In this document: piece after piece, positions 5,217 to 53,132 of the stretch
How the letters are laid out: each line of letters opens with the position of its first letter
Numbering within the stretch: the first letter of the stretch is position 1
Assembly (NCBI GenBank): GCA_031555055.1
Contig: JAVBUT010000002.1
Location: 210,165 to 274,164 of the forward strand
DNA length: 64,000 bases
Origin: Alphaproteobacteria bacterium
GTDB lineage: Bacteria; Pseudomonadota; Alphaproteobacteria; Rs-D84
Reading direction: 5' to 3'
The notes under the pieces: generated by a model
Seen by the model: only the letters and a program-made list of their open reading frames with translations
Databases searched by the model: none
Told to the model about the DNA's origin: nothing
Translations under genes and position numbers: made by a program

Positions 5217-6965
5217 ATGTCAGATAAAGATAAAAAATATCCAATCGAACTGGTGCGTCACAGTCTGGCGCACGTATTGGCGGCGGCGGTTCAGAAACTG
5301 TGGCCGGATGTAAAATTCGCGGGCGGGCCCGATATTGAAAACGGATTCTATTACGATTTTGATACCGATCATCGTTTTTCGGAAAGTGACTTTCCGGCAA
5401 TCGAAAAAGAAATGAAGGCGTTGATCAAATCGGATGGAATGTTCGTTCGCCGTGAAGTCTCGTTACAGGAAGCAAAAGAAATATTTGCGGCCCAACCGTT
5501 TAAAATGGAATGGCTGAACGAATATGACGCGGCAGGTGAAAAATTGTCGATCTATGAATTCCGTGGATTCGTGGACTTGTGCCGTGGGCCGCACGTAGAA
5601 TCATCCAAAGATTTGCCACGCGACGGATTTAAAATCCGCAGCGTTGCCGGTGCATACTGGAAAGGTGATTCCAAAAACAAAATGTTACAGCGTATCTATG
5701 TCGATGCATTTGCGTCCGCCGATGAACTGGACGCGCATCTGAAAATGATGGAAGAGGCCGCCAAGCGCGATCATCGCAAGATTGGCCGTGATATGGACTT
5801 GTTCCATTTCGAACCGGAATACGCGCCGGGCGCCGTGTTCTGGCACGATAAAGGTTATAAGATATATCGCCGTCTGATCGAATATGTGCGTATGCGCCAG
5901 GAAAAAGCCGGCTATTTGGAAATTTCAACCCCGGGGCTGATGGACCGTTCTTTGTGGGAAACGTCAGGCCACTGGGCGAAATATGGCGAACATAATTATT
6001 CCGGCAAGACCGAGGACGGTAAGCAGTTCTGTATAAAGCCGATGTCTTGTCCGGGCGGTATGCTGGTGTTTGGGCATGGTCTGACTTCTTATAAAGACCT
6101 GCCGATGTATGTCGCCGAATTCGGAAAAGTTCATCGGTACGAAGCCGCCGGTGGCTTGCACGGTATCATGCGTGTGCGCGAATTCACCCAAGATGATGCG
6201 CATATATTCTGTACGGAAAACCAGCTGGAAGATGAAGTTGTAAAGATTCTGCGCTTTATCAAAGATATTTATGGCAAATTCGGGTTCAAAAACGTCACCA
6301 TGAAACTGGCGACGCGCAAAGAATCGGAATTCCGTATCGGATCGGATGAAATATGGGATCGCGCCGAAGCCGCGCTTAGAAACGCGCTGGATAAAAACGG
6401 TATTGAATACGAAATCGCCGTTGGTGACGCCGCTTTTTATGGGCCCAAGATTGACAACTATCTGCGCGATTCGATCGGCCGCGTATGGCAGTGCGGAACA
6501 GTCCAGCTGGATATGAATCTGCCGGAACGCTTTGACTTGTCCTATATCGGCGAAGATGGTGAAAAGCACCGTCCGATTATGTTGCATCGTGCAATGCTGG
6601 GGTCGATTGAACGTTTTATGGGGATATTGCTGGAAGAGACCGGTGGAAACCTGCCGCTGTGGCTGTCGCCGGAACCGGTGGTCGTAACCCCGATTTCCGA
6701 AAAGTACAAAGACTATGCGGTCGAAGTGTACGACATGCTGCGTCATGCGGGCGTTTATGCGGGCCGCGATTTGCGCGACGAAAAAGTCAATTACAAGATT
6801 CGCGAACTGTCGCTGGCCAAGACGCCGATCATCGCAGTCGTAGGCGAGAAAGAGCAGGCGGATAAAACCGTAACTTTGCGCTGGCTGGGGTCTGATCAGC
6901 AAGACACAATGTCGCTGGATAAATTCATCGACATGATGAAGTCCGCAGTCCAAATGCCAGAATAA
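5217..6965 (+). CDS. thrS: threonine--tRNA ligase, apparently lacking the N-terminal TGS domain
   Basis: Begins at the editing-domain motif RHSLAHVLAAAVQKLWP and GFYYDFD. Class II catalytic and anticodon-binding regions follow. 582 aa versus about 640 in canonical ThrRS. Confidence 0.9.
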   Translation: MSDKDKKYPIELVRHSLAHVLAAAVQKLWPDVKFAGGPDIENGFYYDFDTDHRFSESDFPAIEKEMKALIKSDGMFVRREVSLQEAKEIFAAQPFKMEWLNEYDAAGEKLSIYEFRGFVDLCRGPHVESSKDLPRDGFKIRSVAGAYWKGDSKNKMLQRIYVDAFASADELDAHLKMMEEAAKRDHRKIGRDMDLFHFEPEYAPGAVFWHDKGYKIYRRLIEYVRMRQEKAGYLEISTPGLMDRSLWETSGHWAKYGEHNYSGKTEDGKQFCIKPMSCPGGMLVFGHGLTSYKDLPMYVAEFGKVHRYEAAGGLHGIMRVREFTQDDAHIFCTENQLEDEVVKILRFIKDIYGKFGFKNVTMKLATRKESEFRIGSDEIWDRAEAALRNALDKNGIEYEIAVGDAAFYGPKIDNYLRDSIGRVWQCGTVQLDMNLPERFDLSYIGEDGEKHRPIMLHRAMLGSIERFMGILLEETGGNLPLWLSPEPVVVTPISEKYKDYAVEVYDMLRHAGVYAGRDLRDEKVNYKIRELSLAKTPIIAVVGEKEQADKTVTLRWLGSDQQDTMSLDKFIDMMKSAVQMPE

Positions 6966-7017
6966 ATTGATTTCTGTGACACATAAATCAATTTCTTGAT
7001 CAGATAAAGAAAAGGAA

Positions 7018-7161
7018 ATGAAAATGAATAAATTAACTTTATTGTTCGCATTGTTTGCGGTATTGACTGTTGCGGGTTGCTGTAACTGTGAAAAAGAGCC
7101 GATTGTGGAACAAAATCACAAGCTGATCGTTCCGCCGAACTTTGGCAACCAACCAAAGTAA
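7018..7161 (+). CDS. small putative lipoprotein (47 aa, lipobox LTVAGC)
   Basis: Sequence MKMNKLTLLFALFAVLTVAGCCNCEK... preceded by GAAAGGAAATG. Below the ORF-track size cutoff. Confidence 0.4.
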   Translation: MKMNKLTLLFALFAVLTVAGCCNCEKEPIVEQNHKLIVPPNFGNQPK

Positions 7162-7164
7162 ATA

Positions 7165-7274
7165 CTAGCGTATAGCAAATAGCGAATAGTGTGTATCGCT
7201 TAGCTGTTTTTTTGATTGAATCTATGTGCTAATCACTATTCACTATACACTATATGCTATTTGCTATGTGCTAG
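7165..7274. repeat. family-A palindromic element (tagcNNatagc-type arms); imperfect inverted repeat
   Basis: ctagcgtatagcaaatagcgaatagtgtgtat versus the reverse complement of ctaatcactattcactatacactatatgctatttgctatgtgctag. Related copies at 13.47 kb and 45.85 kb. Confidence 0.6.
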
Positions 7275-7316
7275 TTTTTATGTTATAATTAATCCATGAA
7301 GTAATGGAGAGATGTT

Positions 7317-8027
7317 ATGAACAATAATGACGAAAGCTTGGACTTGTTGGACTTGGAAGATGACGCTGGTTTGGACAATCTGCCGGAATCCAGCCCATTT
7401 ACACAACCGCGCCCGAAAAAGCCTTGGCTGTTGCTGGGGGTTGGTTTGCTGGTCATCGCCCTGGCGACGTATATAATAATCCGTGTTGTCGGGTCTGATT
7501 CGGAATCATCGGTTGAAATCGATCTGGATGCGCCGGCTGTTGTAACAATTGACGGCGAAGCGGGAACAGTAACCGACACTATCGTCGTTCCGCCGCAACC
7601 GGTTCAGCCCCAGCCCGTGGTATCCCAGCCCCAGCCGGCACCTGTGCAGGCAACGCCTGGTGTTCCTGTGCGCGAAGTAAAAGACCGTCCGGCGACAACA
7701 TTTGACCCGGCAAAGCCTGTGGCGACCAAACCGGTCCAGACAGTAAAACCGAAACCGACTGTCAAACCAAAGGCAAGCGCGGCCGGATCATGGTATGTTC
7801 AATTCGGATCGTACAGCACGCGTGCATTGGCTGAATCCGCCCAGAAAAAGATACATGCTGGACACAGTGGCCTGTTCGCGGGCAAACAATTTGTAATTCT
7901 GGCCGCGGTTCTGCCGAATGGGACGACCACGTACAGACTGCGCATTGCGTTTGCGACATCGAATGATGCAAATGGATTCTGCCGCAATGCCAAATCCGAC
8001 GGATTGGATTGTTATGTAGCAAGATAA
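7317..8027 (+). CDS. SPOR-domain cell-division/peptidoglycan-binding protein (DedD/FtsN-like)
   Basis: N-terminal TM segment, Pro-rich linker and C-terminal SPOR signature WYVQFGSYSTRALAE...YRLRI. Confidence 0.7.
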   Translation: MNNNDESLDLLDLEDDAGLDNLPESSPFTQPRPKKPWLLLGVGLLVIALATYIIIRVVGSDSESSVEIDLDAPAVVTIDGEAGTVTDTIVVPPQPVQPQPVVSQPQPAPVQATPGVPVREVKDRPATTFDPAKPVATKPVQTVKPKPTVKPKASAAGSWYVQFGSYSTRALAESAQKKIHAGHSGLFAGKQFVILAAVLPNGTTTYRLRIAFATSNDANGFCRNAKSDGLDCYVAR

Positions 8028-9597: not shown

Positions 9598-10767
9598 ATG
9601 ACAAAAAACATATATATGGACGCCGCCGCCAGCAGCCTGAAACCACAGTCTGTGATTGATGCGGAAATGGATTTTTTACAAAATCGTTATGCAAACGCCG
9701 GGCGTGGAATATGCGCGCGTGCATCCGCGGTTGACAATATGGTGGCGAATACCCGTGACGCGGTCCGTGATTTTATTGGCGCGTCAAAATCCGACCAAAT
9801 TATTTTTACATCCGGCACCACGGACGGGATGAATAAAATCGCCAAAATGTTAAAAACTTCGTTATCGTTTGACGACAATTCTTTGGTTATGGTGTCCGAT
9901 CTGGATCATCACAGCGCGCGCATGCCGTTTGAAGAAATGCGCCATGGTGCCGGACGTAATTTTGCTGTATGTCCATTGGACAAAGAATTTAACATTGATA
10001 CTGAAAATATCCCGGCCGCCGACGTATTCGTTATTACCGCTATGTCAAACGTGCTGGGGGCGCCCCAGGATGTAAAAAAAATTATATCTGCGGCCCGTGC
10101 AAAAAATCCAGACGTTATAACGGTTGTCGACGCCGCACAATATGTTGCGTATTTGCCAATTGACGTTGCCGATTGGGATTGTGACTTTTTATGTTTTTCC
10201 GGGCACAAGATCGGCGCGGATACAGGTGTTGGTATAATGTATATAAAAGAGCCGAAAAAATGGTTCCCGGCGGAACTTGGTGGGGGCATGGTGTCGCGAA
10301 TAACAGGATCGGACGGATCAAACGACAGCCGATGGATTTTTATGTCCGCACCAGAAAAATTCGAAGCGGGCACATTGCCGCTGACCCAGATCGCGGGGTT
10401 GGTTTCGGCGATAAGGAATCAGGAATCAGGAATCCGCCTCCGCAGATGCTTCGGCGGACAAGTCAGGGATCAGGGATCGAGAATTGTGAGGTATCTGCAT
10501 GATGAGTTGTCAAAAATTGATCGTATAAAAATAATTACCAAACCAGATGCGGCGGTTTTGACATTCGTGGTCGACGGTATGCATGTGCTGGATTTTGGGG
10601 CTTTGGTGGGTGCGTCGGGCGTATGTATCCGCGTTGGAAACATGTGTGCGTCATGGATACATCGTTTATTGGGACAAGACGGCACGATACGGATATCTTG
10701 TGGATTCTGGAACACAATGGATGAAGCAAACGATGTTATTGATATAATAAAAAAGATATTGAAATGA
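9598..10767 (+). CDS. sufS: cysteine desulfurase, class V aminotransferase (SufS/NifS-like)
   Basis: PLP-lysine motif SGHK, TSGTT and class-V pattern. Followed by DUF59 and SufE genes. Carries a composite repeat insert at 10415-10483. Confidence 0.8.
   Translation: MTKNIYMDAAASSLKPQSVIDAEMDFLQNRYANAGRGICARASAVDNMVANTRDAVRDFIGASKSDQIIFTSGTTDGMNKIAKMLKTSLSFDDNSLVMVSDLDHHSARMPFEEMRHGAGRNFAVCPLDKEFNIDTENIPAADVFVITAMSNVLGAPQDVKKIISAARAKNPDVITVVDAAQYVAYLPIDVADWDCDFLCFSGHKIGADTGVGIMYIKEPKKWFPAELGGGMVSRITGSDGSNDSRWIFMSAPEKFEAGTLPLTQIAGLVSAIRNQESGIRLRRCFGGQVRDQGSRIVRYLHDELSKIDRIKIITKPDAAVLTFVVDGMHVLDFGALVGASGVCIRVGNMCASWIHRLLGQDGTIRISCGFWNTMDEANDVIDIIKKILK
10415..10483. repeat. composite GAATCAG-heptamer/core element inserted in-frame in sufS; same core as the miaB copy
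   Basis: ggaatcaggaatcaggaatcc-gcctccgcagatgcttcggcggacaagtcagg-gatcagggatcgag. The reverse complement occurs at 26836-26896. Confidence 0.75.
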
Positions 10768-11078
10768 GTTTTACCAAAGATCAAATCATAAATGCGATAA
10801 AGACCGTGTATGATCCGGAAATCCCTGTTAATATATGGGATTTGGGGCTGATTTATGATATCGATATCAAAAACGATATGGTTGTTATAACCATGACTTT
10901 TACCAGCCCAACATGCCCCATGATGGAAGAGCTGTTGGCAGAGGTTAAAGAGAAAGTCGAAGCGGTCGCCGGAGTTGCCCAGGTGAAAATAGAACTGGTG
11001 TGGAATCCGCCATGGGATATTTCGCGCATGTCGGACGCGGCGCGTTTGGAATTGGATTTGACCGAAGCGGGTTGGTAG
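10764..11078 (+). CDS. DUF59/MIP18-family Fe-S assembly protein (SufT-like)
   Basis: TVYDPEIPVNIWDLGLIYD...TSPTCP motif. 4-nt overlap with sufS. Confidence 0.7.
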   Translation: MSFTKDQIINAIKTVYDPEIPVNIWDLGLIYDIDIKNDMVVITMTFTSPTCPMMEELLAEVKEKVEAVAGVAQVKIELVWNPPWDISRMSDAARLELDLTEAGW

Positions 11079-11836: not shown

Positions 11837-13471
11837 ATGTTTGAAGTAGGAAGGGATATTTTAAAAGGTGGCTTTAAATCCGCGGGCGCGGATGTTGCGT
11901 CACGTGGTCGACTGCGCATTGTATATTCTTTGTTTGTCATCGCATTTTCCATTTTTATTGTGAAAACATTGTGGTTGGGGGTCCAGGGCACAGACCGCGC
12001 ACGCCGCGGCACCGGGGCGGGCGACTGGGTGGTTACGCGCGCCGACATCGTTGACCGAAACGGCGATATTCTGGCCAAAAACATAATGTCCGGGCATATT
12101 ACGCTACGTCCACAACTGGTCAAGGATCGCGATGCTGTCGCAAGATTGATACATCAGACTATGCCAATGGAATACAGTCTGTCGGACGCGCTGGGGATGA
12201 TGAATTCGTCCAGACGATTCATTTATGTTAAAAAGCTGGCCGATGATTCCGCACGCAACGCCGTGGCAAACGCAAAACTGGCGGGATTGGACATAGAGCA
12301 GGTTCAAATGCGTCGTTATCCAAAGCGCCGGCTGTTCTCGCACATTGTCGGATTTGTCGGAAATGACGGACATGGGTTGGAAGGCGCGGAAAGAATATAC
12401 GATAGCTATCTGTCTGAAAATAAAGACCCGTTGCGGCTGTCGCTGGATTCGCGTATACAGTCCGTGTTTTACGAACAGCTGTCCGCGGCAATGCACAAAT
12501 ACCAGGCGAATGCCGCAATGGGCATGCTGATGAACTCACGCACGGGGGAAATGTTGGCGATTGTATCTTTGCCGGACTTTGATCCGGAAAATATTGCGTC
12601 GTCGACAACAGCCAGCCGTATGTTCATGCCATTGCGCGGCGTATTCGAAATGGGGTCCATATTCAAGATATTCAACACTGCCATGGCGTTCGAAAACGGG
12701 ATAAATAAAAAATACTTTGTTGGTACGCCGTACAAGATACCGGACAAATTCGGACGCACGGCTGCGATCATCGGCGATGTCAGCAGTTTGAAAAAAGTCA
12801 CCGACGTGACACCGAATATGTCTGTTCCGGAAATTATGCTGTATTCATGCAACGCGGGGTCTGCCCAGATTGCGTTGGATTTGCCGGACGGGGCCCAGCG
12901 CGAATTCTTTTCACGAATTCATTTGGACGATGCGTTGGATTTGGAATTTGGCCGGACCGAGCGTACATTGTTGCCGATCAAATGGGGACCGGTGGAAAGG
13001 GCGACAGTATCTTTTGGTCACGGTGTATCTGTAACGCCGATGCACGTGATGCTGGGGGTGAACGCTATGACAAACGGCGGGATATTCATATATCCGACGT
13101 TGCAAAAGCGCAGCATTGGTGCCGTCCGCGGCGAACGTGTGGTGTCACCGGACATATCTGCGACATTGCGCGGGATAATGTTCCGCGTCGCAGAAGAAAC
13201 GACCGCGAAACAGGCCAGAATCGCCGGCATTAACATTGGTGGGAAAACATCGACTGCGGAAAAAAGAATAAACGGCGTGATCGATCATAAAAAGAATCTG
13301 ACAGCATTCGTTGGGGCATTTCCGATAGAGGCGCCACAATACACCATACTGATTGTTCTGGACGAACCAAAGGGAACCCAGGAATCATACGGTCTGCGCA
13401 CGGCTGCGTGGAATGCGGTTCCGACCGCCGGCAAGATACTGGACAGCGTGTTGCCAATGCTGTTTGATTAA
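11837..13471 (+). CDS. ftsI: peptidoglycan D,D-transpeptidase FtsI (PBP3)
   Basis: GSIFK (SxxK), YSCN (SxN) and KTST (KTG-like) motifs. N-terminal TM segment. Confidence 0.8.
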   Translation: MFEVGRDILKGGFKSAGADVASRGRLRIVYSLFVIAFSIFIVKTLWLGVQGTDRARRGTGAGDWVVTRADIVDRNGDILAKNIMSGHITLRPQLVKDRDAVARLIHQTMPMEYSLSDALGMMNSSRRFIYVKKLADDSARNAVANAKLAGLDIEQVQMRRYPKRRLFSHIVGFVGNDGHGLEGAERIYDSYLSENKDPLRLSLDSRIQSVFYEQLSAAMHKYQANAAMGMLMNSRTGEMLAIVSLPDFDPENIASSTTASRMFMPLRGVFEMGSIFKIFNTAMAFENGINKKYFVGTPYKIPDKFGRTAAIIGDVSSLKKVTDVTPNMSVPEIMLYSCNAGSAQIALDLPDGAQREFFSRIHLDDALDLEFGRTERTLLPIKWGPVERATVSFGHGVSVTPMHVMLGVNAMTNGGIFIYPTLQKRSIGAVRGERVVSPDISATLRGIMFRVAEETTAKQARIAGINIGGKTSTAEKRINGVIDHKKNLTAFVGAFPIEAPQYTILIVLDEPKGTQESYGLRTAAWNAVPTAGKILDSVLPMLFD

Positions 13472-13766
13472 CCATTAGCGCATAACAAATAGCGTATAGC
13501 GATTAGCAAATAGTTACAGGTGCGAACATTTTGTCGTCATACCGGCGACTTGTCCACCGAAGCCTTGGCGAAGGTCGGAGCGCCTGTATAACGACCAGTG
13601 TGAAATATTTTTATTTTTTACAAAATACCGAATTCGGGTTATTTAAAACACAAATTTTGGAACAGAATATAATAAATAGGAAACGTTTCTTTTGTAATAA
13701 AAGAGGCTTATTCCATAGAAGATGCTATGCGCTAATCGCTATACGCTATTTGCTATGCGCTAATGG
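13472..13766. mobile_element. MITE-like element: about 43-bp near-perfect terminal inverted repeats (family A, tagc-rich) flanking about 210 bp of non-coding sequence
   Basis: ccattagcgcataacaaatagcgtatagcgattagcaaatag at 13472-13514 versus the reverse complement of gctatgcgctaatcgctatacgctatttgctatgcgctaatgg at 13724-13766. The internal ORF 13531-13770 is judged spurious. Confidence 0.65.
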
Positions 13767-13840
13767 TTAATGACTATTAACTATTTGCTATTGATCATTT
13801 AATTGCTATAATAATTCCGATAAGAAAAAAAGAGATTACG

Positions 13841-15607
13841 TTGAGAAAGATAGTAGAAAGATCCATGCTGGGCAAAGCGTGGGTTTGCGCGACAGAGTAT
13901 GAAGAAAACACGCCCAGCAGTACGATTTTAAAAGAAGACTTGTTAAAGAAAATATTGGAATCGCGCGGCGTTCGTAGCGGGGTCGATACCAGCAAGTTTT
14001 TAAATCCCAGCATAAAAGAATACATGCCCGACCCCAGCGTGCTGGCCGATATGGATTCGGCGGCGCGTATAATTGTCGACAATATTGTCGCCGGGCGGAA
14101 AATTGCCATATACGGCGACTATGACGTGGACGGAATAACGTCCAGTGCGATCATGGTGAAATATCTGCGTGCGGTTGGCGCAAACGTCGTATGGCACCTG
14201 CCAACGCGCGAAGGCGAAGGGTATGGTCTGAACTGTGATGCCGTCAGTGCGATCGCCGCGGACGGGGTCAATCTGATCGTGACCGTCGATTGCGGAATCA
14301 GCGGCGTGGAAGAAATTGCGCTGGCTAAAAAACTGGGGCTGGATGTCGTTGTTACCGATCATCATTCGCCTGACGGGAATCTGCCGGCGGCCGACGCGGT
14401 CGTGAATCCCAAACGCCTGGACGATACGTCCGGGATGTCTTATCTGGCGGGTGTCGGCGTGGCTTTTATGACACTGGTCGCCGTGAATAGAGAACTGAAG
14501 TCCAGAAATGACGATAAATTCCAAATTCCGCATTCTTTATTTTTGATCGATCTGATGGATTTGGTCGCGCTGGGGACGATATGCGACACAATGCCGTTGG
14601 TGGGACTGAATCGTGCGTTTGCTGCGACCGGCCTGAAAGTTCTGGCCAAGCGAAACAATGTCGGCCTGCGCGCGTTGATGGATATTGCAGTAATTAAATA
14701 GCAGACCAAATACAGCGTGATGTTCGCGCTGGGGCCGCGGTTGAATGCGGCGGGCCGTCTGGATTCTGCGGCGCCGGCGCTGGAACTGTTGTTGACGGAC
14801 AATATACTGGTCGCGAACGATCTGGCGGCAAAATTAAACCGCATGAACCAGGAACGCATAGATGTTCAAAATGCAATCATGATAAGTGCGACCGAAATGG
14901 CCCAGAAATGTTGCGCTTTGGGAAAATGCAGCCTGTTCGTATGTGGCGATAACTGGCGCACTGGGGTTATGGGGATCATCGCCGGGCGGCTGAAAGACAA
15001 ATATAACCTGCCGACATGTGTTGCGACGAAATGCGACGGCGTGATTGACGGGTCCGGCCGTTCTATACCGGGCGTCGATCTGGGGCGCATTGTCCATGAT
15101 GCGGCGGCATTGGGAATAATCAGCGGCGGCGGCGGCCATGCGGCGGCGGCCGGGTTTACTTTGCCGGCAGAGAATGAACAGAAATTCTGCGAATTTTTGG
15201 AAAAATCCGTCTTGGCGCAGTTGGATGGGAAAATTCCGGAAAACGAAACGGTTGTTGATGCCGAAATGGATGCCGGTGGCGCAACGATGAAGCTGGTGGA
15301 ACAACTGGCGGAACTGGAACCGTTCGGCCAGGCCAATCCGGAACCGACACTGGTACTGCGTGGCGGGACATTGGCCCACGCGACGATAATGGGCAAGGGC
15401 GGAACGCACTTGCGCGGATATATCAATACAGGCAACGGATCGCGCCTGGCGTTTGTGGGATTTAATATGGTCGGGACGCCGGTCGGTGATTTTTTGCTGG
15501 ACGATGCGCATACAAATACTAAAATGATGATGTTGGGAAAGTTAAAGGAAAACGAATACCAAGGCCGCGTATCGGCACAGTTCATTTTGGAAGACTTGGC
15601 AATTTAA
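13841..15607 (+). pseudogene. recJ: recJ single-stranded-DNA exonuclease interrupted by an in-frame TAG at 14699-14701 (two ORFs 13841-14701 and 14717-15607 in the same frame)
   Basis: DHH motifs (YGDYDVDG, DHH) in the first part. Conserved FALGPRLNAAGRL and DHHA1 region in the second part. The frames are identical and separated by a single amber codon. Confidence 0.6.
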
Positions 15608-15685: not shown

Positions 15686-16312
15686 ATGAAATTTTTTTTA
15701 AAGTCATTATTCATTGTTAGTTTTTCATTTTTTATTCCGACATTTGCGTATGCGTCGGTTGACAAGGCTTTGGTGGATTCGGCTGAAACTTATCTGAATT
15801 CTATCACCGGGCTGAACGGAAAATTTACACAGAATGCGAACGGCAAGAAAAGCAATGGGACATTCGACATGCTGCGCCCGGGCAAAGTTCGCCTGGATTA
15901 CAAAGACATGCCGGTACAGTTGATATCGGACGGTCAGGATTTGTATTTCTTTGACAAGTCGCTGGACCAGATCACGACCGTGCCGCTGACCAGTACGCCG
16001 GCCGGGATATTGGTACGCAAGAACATCAATTTACGCAATGCGGATATCAAGGTAACCGAAACAAAACAGAATGCCAAGACTTTCGCGCTGACCATGCATA
16101 TGCGCGATAATGAAGGTGTCGGCAAAATGACTGTCGTATTCGACAATGCGCCGATAAAGCTGAATTCATGGACGGTGTCGGACGCCACAGGGACCAAGAC
16201 GGATGTGGTATTCAACGATCTGAAAACAAAAACCGATTTTGCAAAAAACTATTTCCAGATACAGCGTCACAAGACTGCGACTACATCCGGCGGCGACAGC
16301 TATTATGATTAA
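15686..16312 (+). CDS. lolA: outer-membrane lipoprotein carrier protein LolA
   Basis: Signal peptide plus LolA pattern F.Q.......G.....RPG..R..Y......SDG..LY.FD..L.Q.T. Confidence 0.7.
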   Translation: MKFFLKSLFIVSFSFFIPTFAYASVDKALVDSAETYLNSITGLNGKFTQNANGKKSNGTFDMLRPGKVRLDYKDMPVQLISDGQDLYFFDKSLDQITTVPLTSTPAGILVRKNINLRNADIKVTETKQNAKTFALTMHMRDNEGVGKMTVVFDNAPIKLNSWTVSDATGTKTDVVFNDLKTKTDFAKNYFQIQRHKTATTSGGDSYYD

Positions 16313-17207
16313 GCGGATATCGAATTATTCCAGACATATTGTTTTCGGCATATCGCTGGCGATGTTGTTGATGTCGCCGCTGCGCGCAATCGATGACGGA
16401 AAATGCGATATTGTCGGCGTAACGCCGGCCGCGCCGACGATTTGTGGCGTTGCGGCCCAGGGCGGTATGCTGTATGGTGAAGTCCGGGGCTGGGACGTGT
16501 ATGCGGGCGATGTTAAAATTTCAAACCGCGGTGTGTTTGTGATCGGACTGGACCGTGATGCGGCGGATACTTTGAAATTAAAATTCTGCAAACAGTCCGG
16601 CGGTGCATGCCAGACTTATTCGTATCCGATAAAACAGCGTAAATATATTGAACAGCACGTAAAGGTCGCCGAAAGATTTGACGAAGACAAACAATCGCCG
16701 GAATTAAAGAAACGCATCGTGGCCGAGGCTGCGCGCGTCCAATCCGTCCGCGCCGCCGCATTGGACGATACCACACTGTATTTTATGAATATGCGCATGC
16801 CGGATGATTTAAAGAAATATAAAATGGGCAGCCTGTTCGGGTCGCGGCGCGTGTTCAACAATGTGCCGAAATCGCCGCACAAGGGTGTTGATTTTTCCAT
16901 GCCGGCCGGTGCGCCGCTGTATCCGATTGCGGACGGTGTTGTCATTATGGCCGAAGGCGAACACTTTTATAACGGCAATATCGTCATGGTGTCGCACGGA
17001 CACGGGATCGTGTCGGCTTATCTGCATATGTCCAAGATTGATGTTCATGTCGGTGACATGGTGAACGACAAAACGATCTTGGGACGCGTCGGATCAACGG
17101 GGCGTTCGTCTGGTGCGCATTTGCACCTGGGGCTGTATCATGGCCAGACCGCGATCGATCCGGCATTGTTTATTGTAAAAGGGGGCGCACAGAATGTTCG
17201 GAATTAG
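16305..17207 (+). CDS. M23-family (LytM domain) metallopeptidase
   Basis: HKGVDF...HxH-type motifs (SHGHG, AHLHLG). ATG at 16305 overlaps the lolA stop (ATGATTAA). Confidence 0.75.
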   Translation: MIKRISNYSRHIVFGISLAMLLMSPLRAIDDGKCDIVGVTPAAPTICGVAAQGGMLYGEVRGWDVYAGDVKISNRGVFVIGLDRDAADTLKLKFCKQSGGACQTYSYPIKQRKYIEQHVKVAERFDEDKQSPELKKRIVAEAARVQSVRAAALDDTTLYFMNMRMPDDLKKYKMGSLFGSRRVFNNVPKSPHKGVDFSMPAGAPLYPIADGVVIMAEGEHFYNGNIVMVSHGHGIVSAYLHMSKIDVHVGDMVNDKTILGRVGSTGRSSGAHLHLGLYHGQTAIDPALFIVKGGAQNVRN

Positions 17208-17532
17208 CTGGGCGGAATTTTTAGTGATAATGCTGGTCGGCGTTCTGGTCGTGCCGGCCAAGAACTGGCCCGATGTCGCAAAGTTTCTGGCCGGGTGCGT
17301 GAAATTTATCCGAAACCTGATTTGGAAGATATCGGATGCGACAGAAAGCATAAAAGAACAGATCGAATTGGAAAAGCCGATCAACGATCTGATCCAATCG
17401 ACGACGCGCGACGTCATGGATACTTTTTCAACAGCCATAAAACCTGTGGATAGGGCGCACAGTGGCATACAAGGGAAAAAAACAATACGTAAACCGTTAA
17501 CAGCGCCGCATAAACCGAAGGCTGTAAAATGA
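17194..17532 (+). CDS. tatB: Sec-independent translocase TatB
   Basis: MFGISWAEFLVIMLVGVLVV...P TatA/B-family N-terminus, longer than TatA. Immediately upstream of tatC. Confidence 0.7.
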   Translation: MFGISWAEFLVIMLVGVLVVPAKNWPDVAKFLAGCVKFIRNLIWKISDATESIKEQIELEKPINDLIQSTTRDVMDTFSTAIKPVDRAHSGIQGKKTIRKPLTAPHKPKAVK

Positions 17533-43079: not shown

Positions 43080-43547
43080 ATGTTCTATAAAATTGGATTT
43101 TGGGTTTTGCTGGCGATTGTGCTGGCGTGCGTCGGGCTGTTTATGTTCACAAACCCTATGAAAAATAATGGTGCAATGTCTTGGGTTGATGTTTATTCCA
43201 ACGATCCGACCGCGACATTAAAATTTATGAACGATACTTTTGATATACGGGTTACCGAAACATCCGTGGTGCCGGACGGCGGTGGCGACTATAATGTAAT
43301 CAAGTCCAAGGGATCATTGTGGCCGTTCGCGGGCGTTATGAAGGCGCCGGAAATGCACGGACATAAAGTTCCGGCCGGAACCATGATATATCTGACGGTT
43401 ACGGATTATGCGATGATGTCGGCCAAAATGGTCGCCAATGGCGCCAAACCAATAGAGGAAGATATCGTTGCCGCCGGTATGCGTTTCGGCGTGTATGAAA
43501 TTCCTGGTGGGCTGACCATCGGCATCGCACAGTATGGTGTGAAATAA
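43080..43547 (+). CDS. hypothetical protein with N-terminal TM helix; weak glyoxalase/VOC-like resemblance
   Basis: AGGAGAAAACTATG RBS. 155 aa. Confidence 0.35.
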   Translation: MFYKIGFWVLLAIVLACVGLFMFTNPMKNNGAMSWVDVYSNDPTATLKFMNDTFDIRVTETSVVPDGGGDYNVIKSKGSLWPFAGVMKAPEMHGHKVPAGTMIYLTVTDYAMMSAKMVANGAKPIEEDIVAAGMRFGVYEIPGGLTIGIAQYGVK

Positions 43548-43695
43548 ATTTCTATGGATGCTTTCGCGTGTTCACAGACCCTCGTGTACGTTTTGTACAT
43601 GTCAGGTCTGCGAACCCACGCAATCATATCATATAAATTTATTTCAAATACTAAGGGCGGGCGGATGAGAACCGTACCCACGTTTTTTGGTTTAT

Positions 43696-43730
43696 GAAAA
43701 AAACGGCCCGTTGGGCCGTTTTTTATTTTA
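43696..43730 (-). terminator. rho-independent terminator of rpsT
   Basis: aaaaaaacggcccgttgggccgtttttt. Confidence 0.7.
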
Positions 43731-43741
43731 CCAGATGTAGA

Positions 43742-44002
43742 CTATTTCATAGAATTGACTTTCTTGGTCAAGCGCGATACCTTGCGGGCGGCGCGTTTTT
43801 TCGGCATGGTTTTGCCGGCGGCCTTCATGATTTTGCTTTCTGCGTTGCGCATTGCAGTAGTTGCGGCGGCCTTGTCCCCGGACGCAATCGCGGTCACGGC
43901 TTTTTTTGTTGCGGTCTTAACCGATGAACGGCGCGCAGTGTTCACAGCGTTCTTTTTCGCAGTTACTAAAATTCTTTTTTTTGCAGATTTGTGATTTGCC
44001 AT
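43742..44002 (-). CDS. rpsT: 30S ribosomal protein S20
   Basis: MANHKSAKKR start. 86 aa, Lys/Ala-rich. Confidence 0.9.
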   Translation of the reverse strand: MANHKSAKKRILVTAKKNAVNTARRSSVKTATKKAVTAIASGDKAAATTAMRNAESKIMKAAGKTMPKKRAARKVSRLTKKVNSMK

Positions 44003-44279
44003 GTTTTTATCCTGTGGTTTTATATTGTTACAGAAGCGAACACCAGGAAATCATTTATATATATGTATGGGAAAGGCCAGGGTGCCAAACGGCATATCAT
44101 CATTTATCTGGTGACAAACTTGCCCCAAATAAACAGCCCGAAATTGCAAATATACAATCCGTAACCCACACAAGGCGCAATCGAAATTAATCAATCGCAA
44201 AATGACGTCATAGTTGTTTACATCATCTGTGTTCTGTGTTATTTTATAGGAAACAAACACAAAATCAAGGAAAAACACA

Positions 44280-44867
44280 ATGACATATATATTGGCGATA
44301 TTGGTCGCGTATTTACTGGGCAGCATTCCATTCGGATACTTGGCGGCGAAATATGCCGGGCACGGTGACCTGCGCAATGTTGGATCAGGCGGCACAGGTG
44401 CGACAAACGTTATGCGTGTCGGCGGGTTAAAGCTGGCCGGGCTGGTTTGGATTCTGGATATGGCAAAATCTATCGCGGCGGCGGCGTTGGGGATATGGCT
44501 GATCGGCGAAGGTTTTGGCGCATGGTGCGGATTCGTATCGATTATCGGACATTGCTATCCGGTATGGTTAAAGTTCCGTGGCGGCAAGGGCATATCATCC
44601 ATGCTGGGGGTAACATTGGCGATCAGTCCGATTGCATTTATCGTATGCGCGATCGAATGGCTGTTGGTCGCGCTGACCACGGGATATTCATCGCTGGGGT
44701 CGATTGTCGGCTTTGCTGTTCTGCCGTTTATGGGATTTGCGATCAGCACATCGGTCGGCTGGGCATTTATCGCGATCGCGTTGCTGTGCATGTGGCGCCA
44801 CCGCGAAAATATAAAGCGTCTGGTCACCGGGACGGAATCCAAAATACATTGGAAGTGGAAAAAATAA
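44280..44867 (+). CDS. plsY: glycerol-3-phosphate acyltransferase PlsY
   Basis: GSIPFGYL, GSGGTGATN and GGKG motifs. 5 TM segments. Confidence 0.85.
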   Translation: MTYILAILVAYLLGSIPFGYLAAKYAGHGDLRNVGSGGTGATNVMRVGGLKLAGLVWILDMAKSIAAAALGIWLIGEGFGAWCGFVSIIGHCYPVWLKFRGGKGISSMLGVTLAISPIAFIVCAIEWLLVALTTGYSSLGSIVGFAVLPFMGFAISTSVGWAFIAIALLCMWRHRENIKRLVTGTESKIHWKWKK

Positions 44868-44979
44868 AACGCCCAACGGGCGTTCTTTATTTTAATATTC
44901 AAAGTGCAATTGAACTTTGCACTTTGAACTTTGTACATTTTATGATATGATACAGCCATAACATAGGTGGGGAAATTTC

Positions 44980-46973: not shown

Positions 46974-47315
46974 ACATCGTAATGTCAATACAGTGTCTAT
47001 ACACGTGGCGGAAATCCGGTAAAAAACCGAATCGGTGTCAAAAAATAAATCTGAAATTTTTCGACCAGAAAAACTTGCAAATCAAAAATAATCTTATAAC
47101 TTAACTGACGTATCCAAACGATTGAGAAATCAATCAGAATATGAACGATAAAGGTTGTAAGAAAAAACAATTTTTTTAATGGCTAAATAAAACCGCCGGT
47201 AAAAAAATTGTTTTTTTCTTAGGTGGTTTTTACAGCCTTGATCAGGATGCGGCAGGAAACTCTGGGGTTGGGCGATATCTGTTGTCGCCATTGGGAACAG
47301 GAAAGGAGAAACAGC

Positions 47316-48590
47316 ATGCAGGCAGCAGCAAAACAAACGGTTACAAATGTGGAATCAATAATGGCGGCAATTGCCGCAAAGATTGATCCCGCGGCGTTTA
47401 AATCCTGGATCGCCCCATGCAAATTATCTGTTCAAAACAATACCCTGTTCATTCATTCTAACAATCAATTTTCCGCCGACTTTATCAAATCCGTTTATTC
47501 CAACACTTTGGGCGACGTCGCCGACGAATTCGGATTGGGTCTGTTCATATGCGTTAACGGCGCATGCGCCCCGGCCGCACGCACGGCAAACGACAATACC
47601 GTAAAAACATTCGTGCCGGCTGCACCGGTTGCCACGACCACAACATTCGATAACTTTATCATATCTGATGAAAACGCATTCGTTGTTTCCGCATGCAAGA
47701 AAATGGCGTCTGGCGCGGCGACTTTTTCACCGCTGTTTATATATGGCGCGGCGGGATGCGGGAAATCATTGCTGGTCGATTGCATTAATTCCGAATCAGC
47801 TGGCCGCACACTGGTCATGACCGGAAACCAGTTTGTTTCCGAATTCCTGCGTGCGATGCGCGAACATTCCGTCTTTGCGTTCAAGGATTTCTGCCGAAAG
47901 TGCGACACATTCATCATGGACGATGTTCATACGCTGGCCGGCAAACGCGCGTCGCTGGACGAATTTATGAATCTGGTTATGGATTTGCGCGCTGCAAATA
48001 AAAATATTGTTCTGACATCGAATGTTGCGCCTGGCGATCTGTCCGGGTTTGACCGCCGTCTGCAATCATTGCTGGCGTCGGGATTGGTCGCAGATGTCGC
48101 GACACCGTCTAAAAATGTTGCGCGCACGATTATGGCGCGTGCCGGCGTTGCGGCGAACGTTGCCGAATATCTAGCGGGCCGCATAAACGGTGACGGTCAC
48201 TTGATTGCGGGCGTTGCCAAAAAAATCAACACGTATGCCGAACTGATGAATTCTTTGGTCACATGCGACGTCGCCGAAAGATTATTGTCTGACACATTGG
48301 TAAAATCCAAGACTCCGCTGGCCATGGTAAAATCCATGTGCGCCAGACTGGGGGTATCGTATGACGCGGTATGCGGAACATCGCGCGTGCGCAATGTCGT
48401 CCGTGCGCGCCAGATTATGATGACCGCGCTGAAGTCTGCGACTTCGCTATCGCTGGCGGAAATCGGACGTCTGGTCGGCGACCGTGATCACGCGACGGTT
48501 CTGTATGCGATTTCGACAACCGCAAAATTAAAATCATCCGATCTGATTCTGGGCGCAGAAATCGACCAGATGATTGCCGAATGCAGATAA
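47316..48590 (+). CDS. dnaA: chromosomal replication initiator DnaA (divergent)
   Basis: TFDNFIISDEN...PLFIYGAAGCGKSLL (Walker A), FIMDDVH (Walker B), arginine finger, and domain IV SRVRNVVRARQIMM...GDRDHATVLYA. RBS GAAAGGAGAAAC. 424 aa. Confidence 0.8.
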   Translation: MQAAAKQTVTNVESIMAAIAAKIDPAAFKSWIAPCKLSVQNNTLFIHSNNQFSADFIKSVYSNTLGDVADEFGLGLFICVNGACAPAARTANDNTVKTFVPAAPVATTTTFDNFIISDENAFVVSACKKMASGAATFSPLFIYGAAGCGKSLLVDCINSESAGRTLVMTGNQFVSEFLRAMREHSVFAFKDFCRKCDTFIMDDVHTLAGKRASLDEFMNLVMDLRAANKNIVLTSNVAPGDLSGFDRRLQSLLASGLVADVATPSKNVARTIMARAGVAANVAEYLAGRINGDGHLIAGVAKKINTYAELMNSLVTCDVAERLLSDTLVKSKTPLAMVKSMCARLGVSYDAVCGTSRVRNVVRARQIMMTALKSATSLSLAEIGRLVGDRDHATVLYAISTTAKLKSSDLILGAEIDQMIAECR

Positions 48591-51092: not shown

Positions 51093-53069
51093 TTAAATGT
51101 CAAGATCTCTTACAAATTTTGCGTGTTCTGTGATAAAGCGGAATCGGAATTCCGGTTTCTTGCCCATTAATTCGGACACCACGGTTTTGGTGCGTTCTGC
51201 GTCTTCGGCGCCTTCTTCGGTGCGTGGCGGCAGTTCGACGCGGATCAACCGGCGTGTTTTCGGGTTCATTGTCGTTTCTTTCAACTGGTTCGGCATCATT
51301 TCGCCAAGCCCTTTGAATCGCGATATTTCAATTTTTTTGTTTTTATATTTTCCTGCCTTTAATTCTTCCAATTCTTCATCCGTATCGACATATATCGATT
51401 CGGTGCCATGCGTCAATTTATACAGCGGCGGGCATGACAGATACAAGTGTCCGCCATGTATCAGGCCCGGCATGTCGCGATAGAAAAACGTCATCAGCAG
51501 TGCCGCGATATGCGATCCATCGACGTCCGCGTCGGTCATGATTATTATTTTTTCATAACGTAATTTTGATTCGTCCCAATCGCGCGCCGTGCCGGCGCCG
51601 ATGATGTCGATCAATTCGTTCAGTTCTTTGTTCGCGCCGAACTTTTCATCAGAGTTAGAGAACACATTCAAAACTTTTCCGCGCAAAGGCATGATTGCCT
51701 GGGTCGCGCGGTCGCGCGCCTGTTTTGCGGTGCCGCCCGCCGATTCGCCTTCGACGATAAACAGTTCTGTGCCCGCGATTCCATGTTTGGCACAATCGGC
51801 CAGTTTGGCCGGCATGCGTGCGCGTTTGGTCGGCGTCTTGCGCGCGATGTCTTTGACAGCCTTGGTCTTGATACGTGCGTTCGCCAGATTGATCACAAAG
51901 TCCAGCAATGCGTTCGCAGTTTTCGGATCAGACGCCAAGAACATTTCCCATGGATCGCGCAGCGCGTTTTCAGTGTATCGCGCGATTTCCGGGTTGGACA
52001 GTTTTTCCTTGGTCTGGCCCAGGAACTGTGGCGATTTATAGAATACGGAAACAATTGATGCGACCGAATCAAAAACGTCTTCGCTGATGATGTTTGCGGC
52101 GGCCTTGTTATTTATTTTTTCGCCATAGTTTTTAATGCCGCGCGTGATCGCGGATTTAAATCCGCTTTCGTGTGTGCCGCCGTCGATTGTCGCGATCGTG
52201 TTACAGTACGACGCGAAAAAGCCATCGTCGGATGCCGCGCCGTTTTCATCGGTTAAAAATGTCAGTGCCCATTCCACACGGCCAGCATCGTCCGGAAAAT
52301 CAACCATGCCGGAAAATATTTTCGGCAGAATGCGCGGCTTGTCGTTTGTGCGTTCCGCCAAAAAGTCCGCGACGCCATTGGGATAATAAAACTCTGTCTT
52401 GGCCGGGATATTCATATCTTCGGTAATTAATTCCGGATTACAGTTCCATTCGATTTTTACGCCGCGCGACAAGAAAGCCTTGGCCCGCGCCATGCGATAG
52501 ATTTTCACCGGCTTGAACGTTGCATTCGCGCCGAAAATATCGTCGTCCAAAGTAAAGCGGATCGCGGTGCCGTGTCCACGTGTCGCGTCGCCCCGGCTTA
52601 CCGGGCTGGTGGTTTTGCCGCGCGCGAATGTTTGGGTCCAGATGTATCCGTCCTTGGACACTTTGACGGTCATTTCAGACGACAAGGCATTTACGACCGC
52701 GCCGCCGACCCCGTGCAGACCGCCGGATGTTTTATATACGTTATTGTTGAACTTGCCACCCGAATGCAGTGTGGTAAAGATGATCTCCAGCGCGGATTTG
52801 CCAGGATATTTCGGGTGTTCGTCGACCGGGATTCCGCGGCCGTCGTCGATGATTTCAATTGTCTTGGCGTCGATCATGTTTACGACGATTTTCTTGGCAA
52901 AGCCGGCGACGGCTTCATCAATAGAATTGTCCATGATTTCCACAGGCAGGTGGTGCCAAGCCTTTTCATCCGTGCCGCCGATGTACATTCCGGGGCGCAG
53001 ACGCACTGGTTCAAGACCCTCCAAAACTTGGATATCCGATGCAGAATAGTTGTTGTTAGTTTCAGCCAT
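51093..53069 (-). CDS. parE: DNA topoisomerase IV subunit B (GyrB/ParE family; length fits ParE)
   Basis: GHKL ATPase motifs (LEGLEPVRLRPGMYIGGT, GLHGVG), Toprim EGESAGG and PLRGKVLN. 658 aa from ATG at 53067-53069. Confidence 0.75.
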   Translation of the reverse strand: MAETNNNYSASDIQVLEGLEPVRLRPGMYIGGTDEKAWHHLPVEIMDNSIDEAVAGFAKKIVVNMIDAKTIEIIDDGRGIPVDEHPKYPGKSALEIIFTTLHSGGKFNNNVYKTSGGLHGVGGAVVNALSSEMTVKVSKDGYIWTQTFARGKTTSPVSRGDATRGHGTAIRFTLDDDIFGANATFKPVKIYRMARAKAFLSRGVKIEWNCNPELITEDMNIPAKTEFYYPNGVADFLAERTNDKPRILPKIFSGMVDFPDDAGRVEWALTFLTDENGAASDDGFFASYCNTIATIDGGTHESGFKSAITRGIKNYGEKINNKAAANIISEDVFDSVASIVSVFYKSPQFLGQTKEKLSNPEIARYTENALRDPWEMFLASDPKTANALLDFVINLANARIKTKAVKDIARKTPTKRARMPAKLADCAKHGIAGTELFIVEGESAGGTAKQARDRATQAIMPLRGKVLNVFSNSDEKFGANKELNELIDIIGAGTARDWDESKLRYEKIIIMTDADVDGSHIAALLMTFFYRDMPGLIHGGHLYLSCPPLYKLTHGTESIYVDTDEELEELKAGKYKNKKIEISRFKGLGEMMPNQLKETTMNPKTRRLIRVELPPRTEEGAEDAERTKTVVSELMGKKPEFRFRFITEHAKFVRDLDI

Positions 53070-53083
53070 GTTTTTATTCCCGT

Positions 53084-53132
53084 AGGGGCGGCTGGAAAGC
53101 CGCCCAGGGCGCGTTTCCACGCGCCCCTACAA
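53084..53132. repeat. nested taggggcg...cgcccctac palindromic element in the parE 5 prime leader
   Basis: gtaggggcggctggaaagccgcccagggcgcgtttccacgcgcccctac. Confidence 0.6.

Follow-up and report, generated by a model that had tools for sequence, protein, structure and literature searches.

A single in-frame amber codon in an otherwise intact recJ gene of a gut alphaproteobacterium of the Rs-D84 group

How does a recJ gene that appears sound in every other respect come to be cut in two by one stop codon? The window considered here, by which we mean the whole 64-kb stretch of DNA that was analysed, contains such a gene, and a first-pass annotation had left three options for its in-frame TAG: a recent nonsense mutation, ascribed to the reductive evolution of recombination and repair, a sequencing error, or a split RecJ made of two polypeptides. 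Our analysis leaves a recent mutation and an error of sequencing or assembly standing and finds no support for the two-polypeptide enzyme.

The locus consists of two open reading frames on the plus strand, 13841-14701 (286 residues from a TTG start, with an alternative ATG at 13865) and 14717-15607 (296 residues from a GTG start, with an ATG at 14720, terminating at the TAA 15605-15607). They lie in the same frame and are parted only by the amber codon TAG at 14699-14701, as had been annotated, and the translation across the stop is exactly the one quoted at the time, IAVIK*QTKYSVMFALGPRLNAAGRL, where the asterisk stands for the stop. The part of recJ upstream of the stop (13841-14698) encodes the N-terminal region and most of the DHH catalytic domain with the metal-binding motifs I-IV, and it matches the Pfam DHH family (E=1.9e-26) and positions 3-248 of the RecJ model TIGR00644 (287.5 bits). 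The part downstream (14702-15607) encodes the last DHH helix (GPRLNAAGR), the long linker helix, the DHHA1 domain with its GGGH motif and the RecJ OB fold; it matches Pfam DHHA1 (1.2e-15) and RecJ_OB (1.3e-21) and continues in TIGR00644 from position 256 to 546 (215.8 bits). Each half alone falls below the curated cut-off of this NCBIfam RecJ equivalog model (396.9 bits), which is passed only by the conceptually repaired protein: when the stop is replaced by Lys, the score rises to 517.8 bits, compared with 518.2 for P0001, the nearest ortholog, which is intact. The DHH motifs DYDVDG, TVDCG, DHH and CD, together with the DHHA1 motif GGGH, all occupy invariant alignment columns, with the metal-binding residues D85/D87/D89, D142, D165-H166-H167 and D241 and the motif G422-G423-G424-H425 all invariant. 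The earlier claim that the two frames reconstitute a full-length RecJ with its DHH and DHHA1 motifs intact is thus borne out. Because the halves match the RecJ models and the repaired protein scores like an ortholog, the locus is one recJ gene carrying a single in-frame amber codon, and as it stands the TAG at 14699-14701 deprives it of one unbroken DHH-to-DHHA1 polypeptide. Judged by its sequence, the gene would be an ordinary bacterial recJ, whose product is predicted to be a single-stranded-DNA 5'-3' exonuclease.

The succession of DHH domain, long linker helix, DHHA1 domain and OB fold is the same as in the RecJ proteins of D. radiodurans (5F54) and T. thermophilus (2ZXO/1IR6). The repaired protein aligns to residues 57-485 of the D. 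radiodurans enzyme (E=7e-74) and, like its close relatives of about 580 residues, it is devoid of the extra C-terminal domain of the Deinococcus and Thermus proteins; it further differs from D. radiodurans RecJ by the interruption of its frame, the TAG corresponding approximately to Gln-258 in the segment RVRQPT. An AlphaFold model computed from an 18-sequence alignment is poor (mean pLDDT 59.6) and served only to assign, with DSSP, the secondary structure near the break, where it places the stop with low confidence in a loop (275-281) between the helices 266-274 and 282-295. According to both the D. radiodurans alignment and this low-confidence model, the break does not coincide with a domain boundary; it is internal to the DHH domain, where it precedes the conserved GPRLNAAGR helix and lies about 35 residues ahead of the linker helix.

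The relatives of the window among the genome-contig matches listed are gut MAGs assigned to Candidatus Enterousia or to uncultured Alphaproteobacteria. The genomes of the Rs-D84 order are mostly smaller than 1 Mb and have been reported to be without pseudogene accumulation (PMC12306168). More than 100 homologs of the protein were found at 68-76% identity, all of them full length (565-590 residues). The locus is syntenic with that of the relative L161 (GCA_031554955.1) over sufS, sufE, ftsI/PBP, recJ, lolA, the M23 peptidase gene, tatA/B and tatC. In comparison with the intact genes of Enterousia/Rs-D84 gut MAGs, such as that of P0001 at the locus L161, with which it shares 74-76% amino acid identity, the synteny and the conserved promoter and leader, the recJ of the window differs by its TAG in place of AAG and by an extra inverted-repeat element of 305 nt in front of the gene. 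The putative promoter, detected by a consensus scan at 13785-13812 on the plus strand, resembles a sigma-70 promoter (TTGCTA, a 16-nt spacer and TATAAT preceded by an upstream TG); its -10 element and the leader sequence are conserved in L161, the closest relative, and it would be the one from which recJ is transcribed.

The inverted-repeat element, which occupies approximately 305 nt (13467-13771) between the ftsI stop and the recJ promoter, has the look of a MITE-type insertion. Its 47-nt terminal inverted repeats (13467-13513 and 13725-13771) are 94% complementary, and the ftsI-recJ spacer measures 369 nt in the window versus 53 nt in L161. Only one copy of the element occurs in the window, none of 163 related loci contains its repeat core, and the spacer gave no Rfam match. 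Furthermore, no tblastn match was obtained in the window for two L161 genes, one encoding a 221-residue hypothetical protein between the M23 peptidase and tatA and the other a GMC oxidoreductase (window 16239-17532 compared with L161 13273-13938 and 17020-18657), so that the syntenic block differs in gene content.

The codon orthologous to the stop is AAG (Lys) in both nearest relatives, which belong to the 'Candidatus Enterousia'/Rs-D84 gut group, and a single A-to-T change therefore yields the TAG. The site lies in a loop, and its alignment column is variable: across 116 sequences it holds K in 66, H in 19, Q in 9, R in 9, T in 5, N in 3, G in 2, S and E in 1 each, and the stop in the window. 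In the comparison with related genomes, suggested at the outset as a check, none of the 115 related loci was split at this site, and 114 of the 115 recJ loci with full coverage were free of any internal stop.

The remainder of the gene is intact. No second stop or frameshift was found in its approximately 1,740 nt, from which we estimate that any neutral evolution since the lesion would be confined to a divergence of no more than a few percent or so. Only one private change affects an otherwise invariant column (I to V), and at the columns conserved in at least 95% of the sequences the protein of the window deviates 11 times, against 12 and 9 for its intact sisters P0002 and P0001. The relative-rate counts are symmetric with most outgroups, e.g. 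41 versus 41, with a modest excess in the N-terminal half for a few of them. The dN/dS analysis of the two halves, which had also been proposed, gave NG86 values versus L161 of 0.095 for the N-terminal and 0.094 for the C-terminal half, like the neighbouring genes (0.04-0.11), and thus no sign of relaxed selection; with dS to the nearest relative saturated at 1.5-2.4, these ratios express long-term constraint and have little power over a short terminal period, and the pairwise comparison was discarded as uninformative on a recent relaxation. With its one lesion, no relaxed selection and no excess of private changes, the gene does not present the features of a decaying pseudogene. The lack of a second lesion fits a base-call error as well as a very young mutation.

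The reading that we place first, and to which we accord about an even chance, is that the stop is a very young nonsense substitution at the level of the strain, AAG (Lys) to TAG, in a variable surface loop of the DHH domain of an otherwise normal recJ. In such a cell, translation would end with Lys-286, and the product released would be a DHH-only fragment devoid of the GPRLNAAGR helix, the linker helix, the DHHA1 domain and the OB fold. As the DHH and DHHA1 domains enclose the active site between them, the allele would be null or a strong hypomorph. Traces at most of the full-length enzyme would arise by near-cognate read-through, and traces at most of the C-terminal fragment by reinitiation at GTG 14717 or ATG 14720 in the absence of a Shine-Dalgarno (SD) motif. 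The gene is non-essential in model bacteria, as known from E. coli recJ mutants, so a real null allele would be unproblematic. We infer that the stop reflects a real mutation and no consensus error, and that RecJ activity is lost; the scales are about level for the corollary that the allele is a strain-level loss of function, an incipient pseudogene, and no evolved gene architecture.

A precedent for a recJ nonsense allele exists in the genus. In a Candidatus Enterousia sp. MAG, the locus L005 (JAZROU010000073.1) contains at its positions 6001-7710, like the window, a single TAG in an otherwise perfect recJ, from which two half-proteins of 288 and 270 residues have been called. This TAG lies 20 codons further downstream than that of the window and has taken the place of a TTG, the codon of the invariant Leu in NAAGR-L-DSA; the stop and a single V/A difference close to the C-terminus are all that distinguishes the L005 product from P0078. 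The P0078 cluster comprises five intact conspecific copies besides the two L005 halves, the gene being intact in five of the six assemblies, and at least this one of the stops of the clade is therefore polymorphic within a species. The two cases differ in that the L005 stop falls on an invariant residue and has intact conspecific alleles on record, whereas the species of the window has one record. To place both stops against a background, 19 genes of the window were compared by tblastn with the related loci, which covered 343,724 aligned codons in 1,320 gene instances. An in-frame stop is present in three of these instances, or approximately 0.2% per gene: the L005 recJ, an ftsI/PBP gene with a TAA in the context DYDP*NIS (L086) and a tatC gene with a TAG at about position 10016 in the context NLA*PVP (L071). 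About two such stops are expected in a genome of 900 genes; an in-frame stop is rare per gene and not rare per genome.

The same survey bears on the foremost alternative, according to which the recJ of the organism is intact, the codon being AAG or some other sense triplet, and a miscall or a minority strain variant has put the T at 14699 into the MAG consensus. We hold this to be a serious possibility, albeit a somewhat doubtful one. The stops in ftsI and tatC, genes expected to be essential and whose knockout should harm the cell, suggest that some of the stops recorded in MAGs are artefacts or minority variants, and the L005 case, with five of six conspecific assemblies intact, offers a direct parallel. 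An error would also agree with a gene that is otherwise indistinguishable from its intact orthologs and with a genome that is a singleton record. Indeed, the proteins P0121 (278 residues, identical to the product of the N-terminal half) and P0241 (295 residues, the C-terminal half) are each a singleton in a collection of 15 billion proteins and, like the neighbours in the window, are each a single record originating from one NCBI contig of 283,484 nt. Exact-protein look-ups in a gene-position index returned no record of the halves (four start variants), of two neighbours or of P0121; the DNA sequence flanking the stop, searched as an exact pattern with the codon left free as NNN, matched no metagenome contig and thus yielded no conspecific allele; and no relative above 71% identity was encountered either in a protein-guided metagenome scan or among the matches listed in a genome-contig scan. 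On the other hand, single-base substitutions are uncommon in a short-read consensus, the comparison of 20 syntenic genes with L161 showed no other broken gene, a scan of the whole window for same-frame ORF pairs revealed no further split gene, and the coding density is normal (88%). From the absence of other broken genes and from this density, it follows that the contig is not generally noisy.

The scan of ORF pairs produced two candidates that were set aside: the pair 58041-58505/58515-59483 corresponds to separate genes, for an unknown protein of 154 residues and an RluD-like pseudouridine synthase, with a TAG between them, and the pair 1255-1791/1795-3411 likewise corresponds to separate genes. 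On the minus strand, at 43406-44977, four open stretches of 100-167 codons follow each other in one frame with single stops between them (TAG, TGA, TAG). The plus strand carries ORFs opposite to them, among which is a PlsY-like gene (44280-44867), and an ORF-free gap of 732 nt (43548-44279) adjoins the stretches, which may be due to chance or represent a decayed gene.

The hypothesis of a functional two-piece RecJ, in which the DHH fragment and a C-terminal fragment reinitiated at GTG 14717 or ATG 14720 would reassemble non-covalently, appears very improbable to us. Both halves are open and fully conserved, but, given that dS to the nearest relative has reached saturation, the youth of the lesion accounts for this conservation in full. 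The start codons lie 15-18 nt past the stop, and translational coupling, in which ribosomes reinitiate after termination at nearby starts, makes such a restart conceivable; however, no SD-like motif is present within 25 nt upstream of either codon, while 25 of 40 sampled genes of the window (about 60%) have one. The break falls in a loop between two helices, as judged from the low-confidence model and the D. radiodurans alignment, and this loop carries further changes with respect to the sister sequences (G to V, P to Q, T to K), but its four changes are no significant excess over the approximately two expected at 24% divergence. The cut is moreover within the DHH domain, upstream of the GPRLNAAGR helix and away from the domain linker, and the split is absent from the 115 related loci.

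In a variant of the nonsense reading, a real amber would be tolerated with a working RecJ, either through the reassembly of fragments across the surface loop or through the production of enough enzyme by read-through. If this were true, the recurrent recJ TAGs in Enterousia, those of the window and of L005, would reflect a selection for a down-tuned RecJ in reduced gut genomes; we judge this very improbable.

Least probable of all, to the point of being barely credible, is that the TAG is decoded, by amber suppression, pyrrolysine insertion or a partial reassignment, so as to give the full-length enzyme. In its favour, three of the four in-frame stops of the clade, that of the window included, are TAG, and the codon following the TAG of the window begins with C. 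In E. coli, termination is relatively weak when a C directly follows TAG, but the same context occurs at two genuine stops of the window. The remaining in-frame stop of the clade is a TAA, and the idea that all of them are TAG was abandoned when the wider count gave this one TAA among three. Since the in-frame TAGs align to Lys, Leu and Ser, there is no single decoded amino acid. The genetic code is normal in the window, where 65 ORFs end with 46 TAA, 12 TAG and 7 TGA, the 12 TAG including those of orthologs at conserved C-termini: the TAG at 11076-11078 comes immediately after the last aligned residue of a FeS-assembly ortholog, and that at 17205-17207, already pointed out beforehand as a genuine stop, terminates the M23 peptidase gene within a few residues of the end of its ortholog. 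The recommended search for an amber suppressor revealed no tRNA with a CUA anticodon in the 64-kb window, in which the only tRNAs are tRNA-Lys(CTT) and tRNA-Phe(GAA), and the folding of the 121 nt that surround and follow the stop is no more favourable than that of shuffled sequences (z -1.69). On the stop usage, tRNAs and folding observed in the window, we rejected a reassigned code, a suppressor tRNA and a structure of the PYLIS or SECIS type.

Taken as a real mutation, does the stop belong to a wider loss of recombination and repair functions, as the first-pass annotation had proposed? The loss of recJ as a trend of the lineage is not supported. Every relative examined among the matches listed keeps recJ, which is intact in all but L005 and evolves with a dN/dS of about 0.1, and the uvrC and tag genes of the window are intact. 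The case resembles the neutralisation of recombination genes reported for Wolbachia (PMC4224334) in that a recombination or repair gene bears a first disabling lesion without further erosion; unlike early pseudogenes of the Wolbachia type, the recJ of the window exhibits no sign that selection has been relaxed, nor of a trend across the lineage. Among its other genes, the window also contains dnaA, a gene for a GyrB-family topoisomerase subunit (gyrB or parE), dnaJ, gatA/B, sufBD and uvrC, all intact. The presence of dnaA (47223-48590) and of the GyrB-family gene, gyrB or parE (51093-53120), suggests that the window is probably near the chromosomal replication origin; the GC skew is positive over nearly its whole length.

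In conclusion, the event is of a type already known, and the locus represents no new kind of split or recoded gene. Its practical value is that of an annotation and quality flag, the half-proteins being already public as separate singleton entries. With in-frame stops at about 0.2% per gene in the MAGs of this clade, in genes expected to be essential among others, 'split genes' that owe their status to a single stop in a MAG should not be over-interpreted. A real stop would mean that a strain of an uncultured gut alphaproteobacterium with a reduced genome has just lost, or nearly lost, its RecJ, and the steps of RecFOR-type recombination and of excision repair in which the enzyme takes part would be mildly weakened. 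The locus would then offer no new mechanism but a snapshot of gene loss, caught at its first step.
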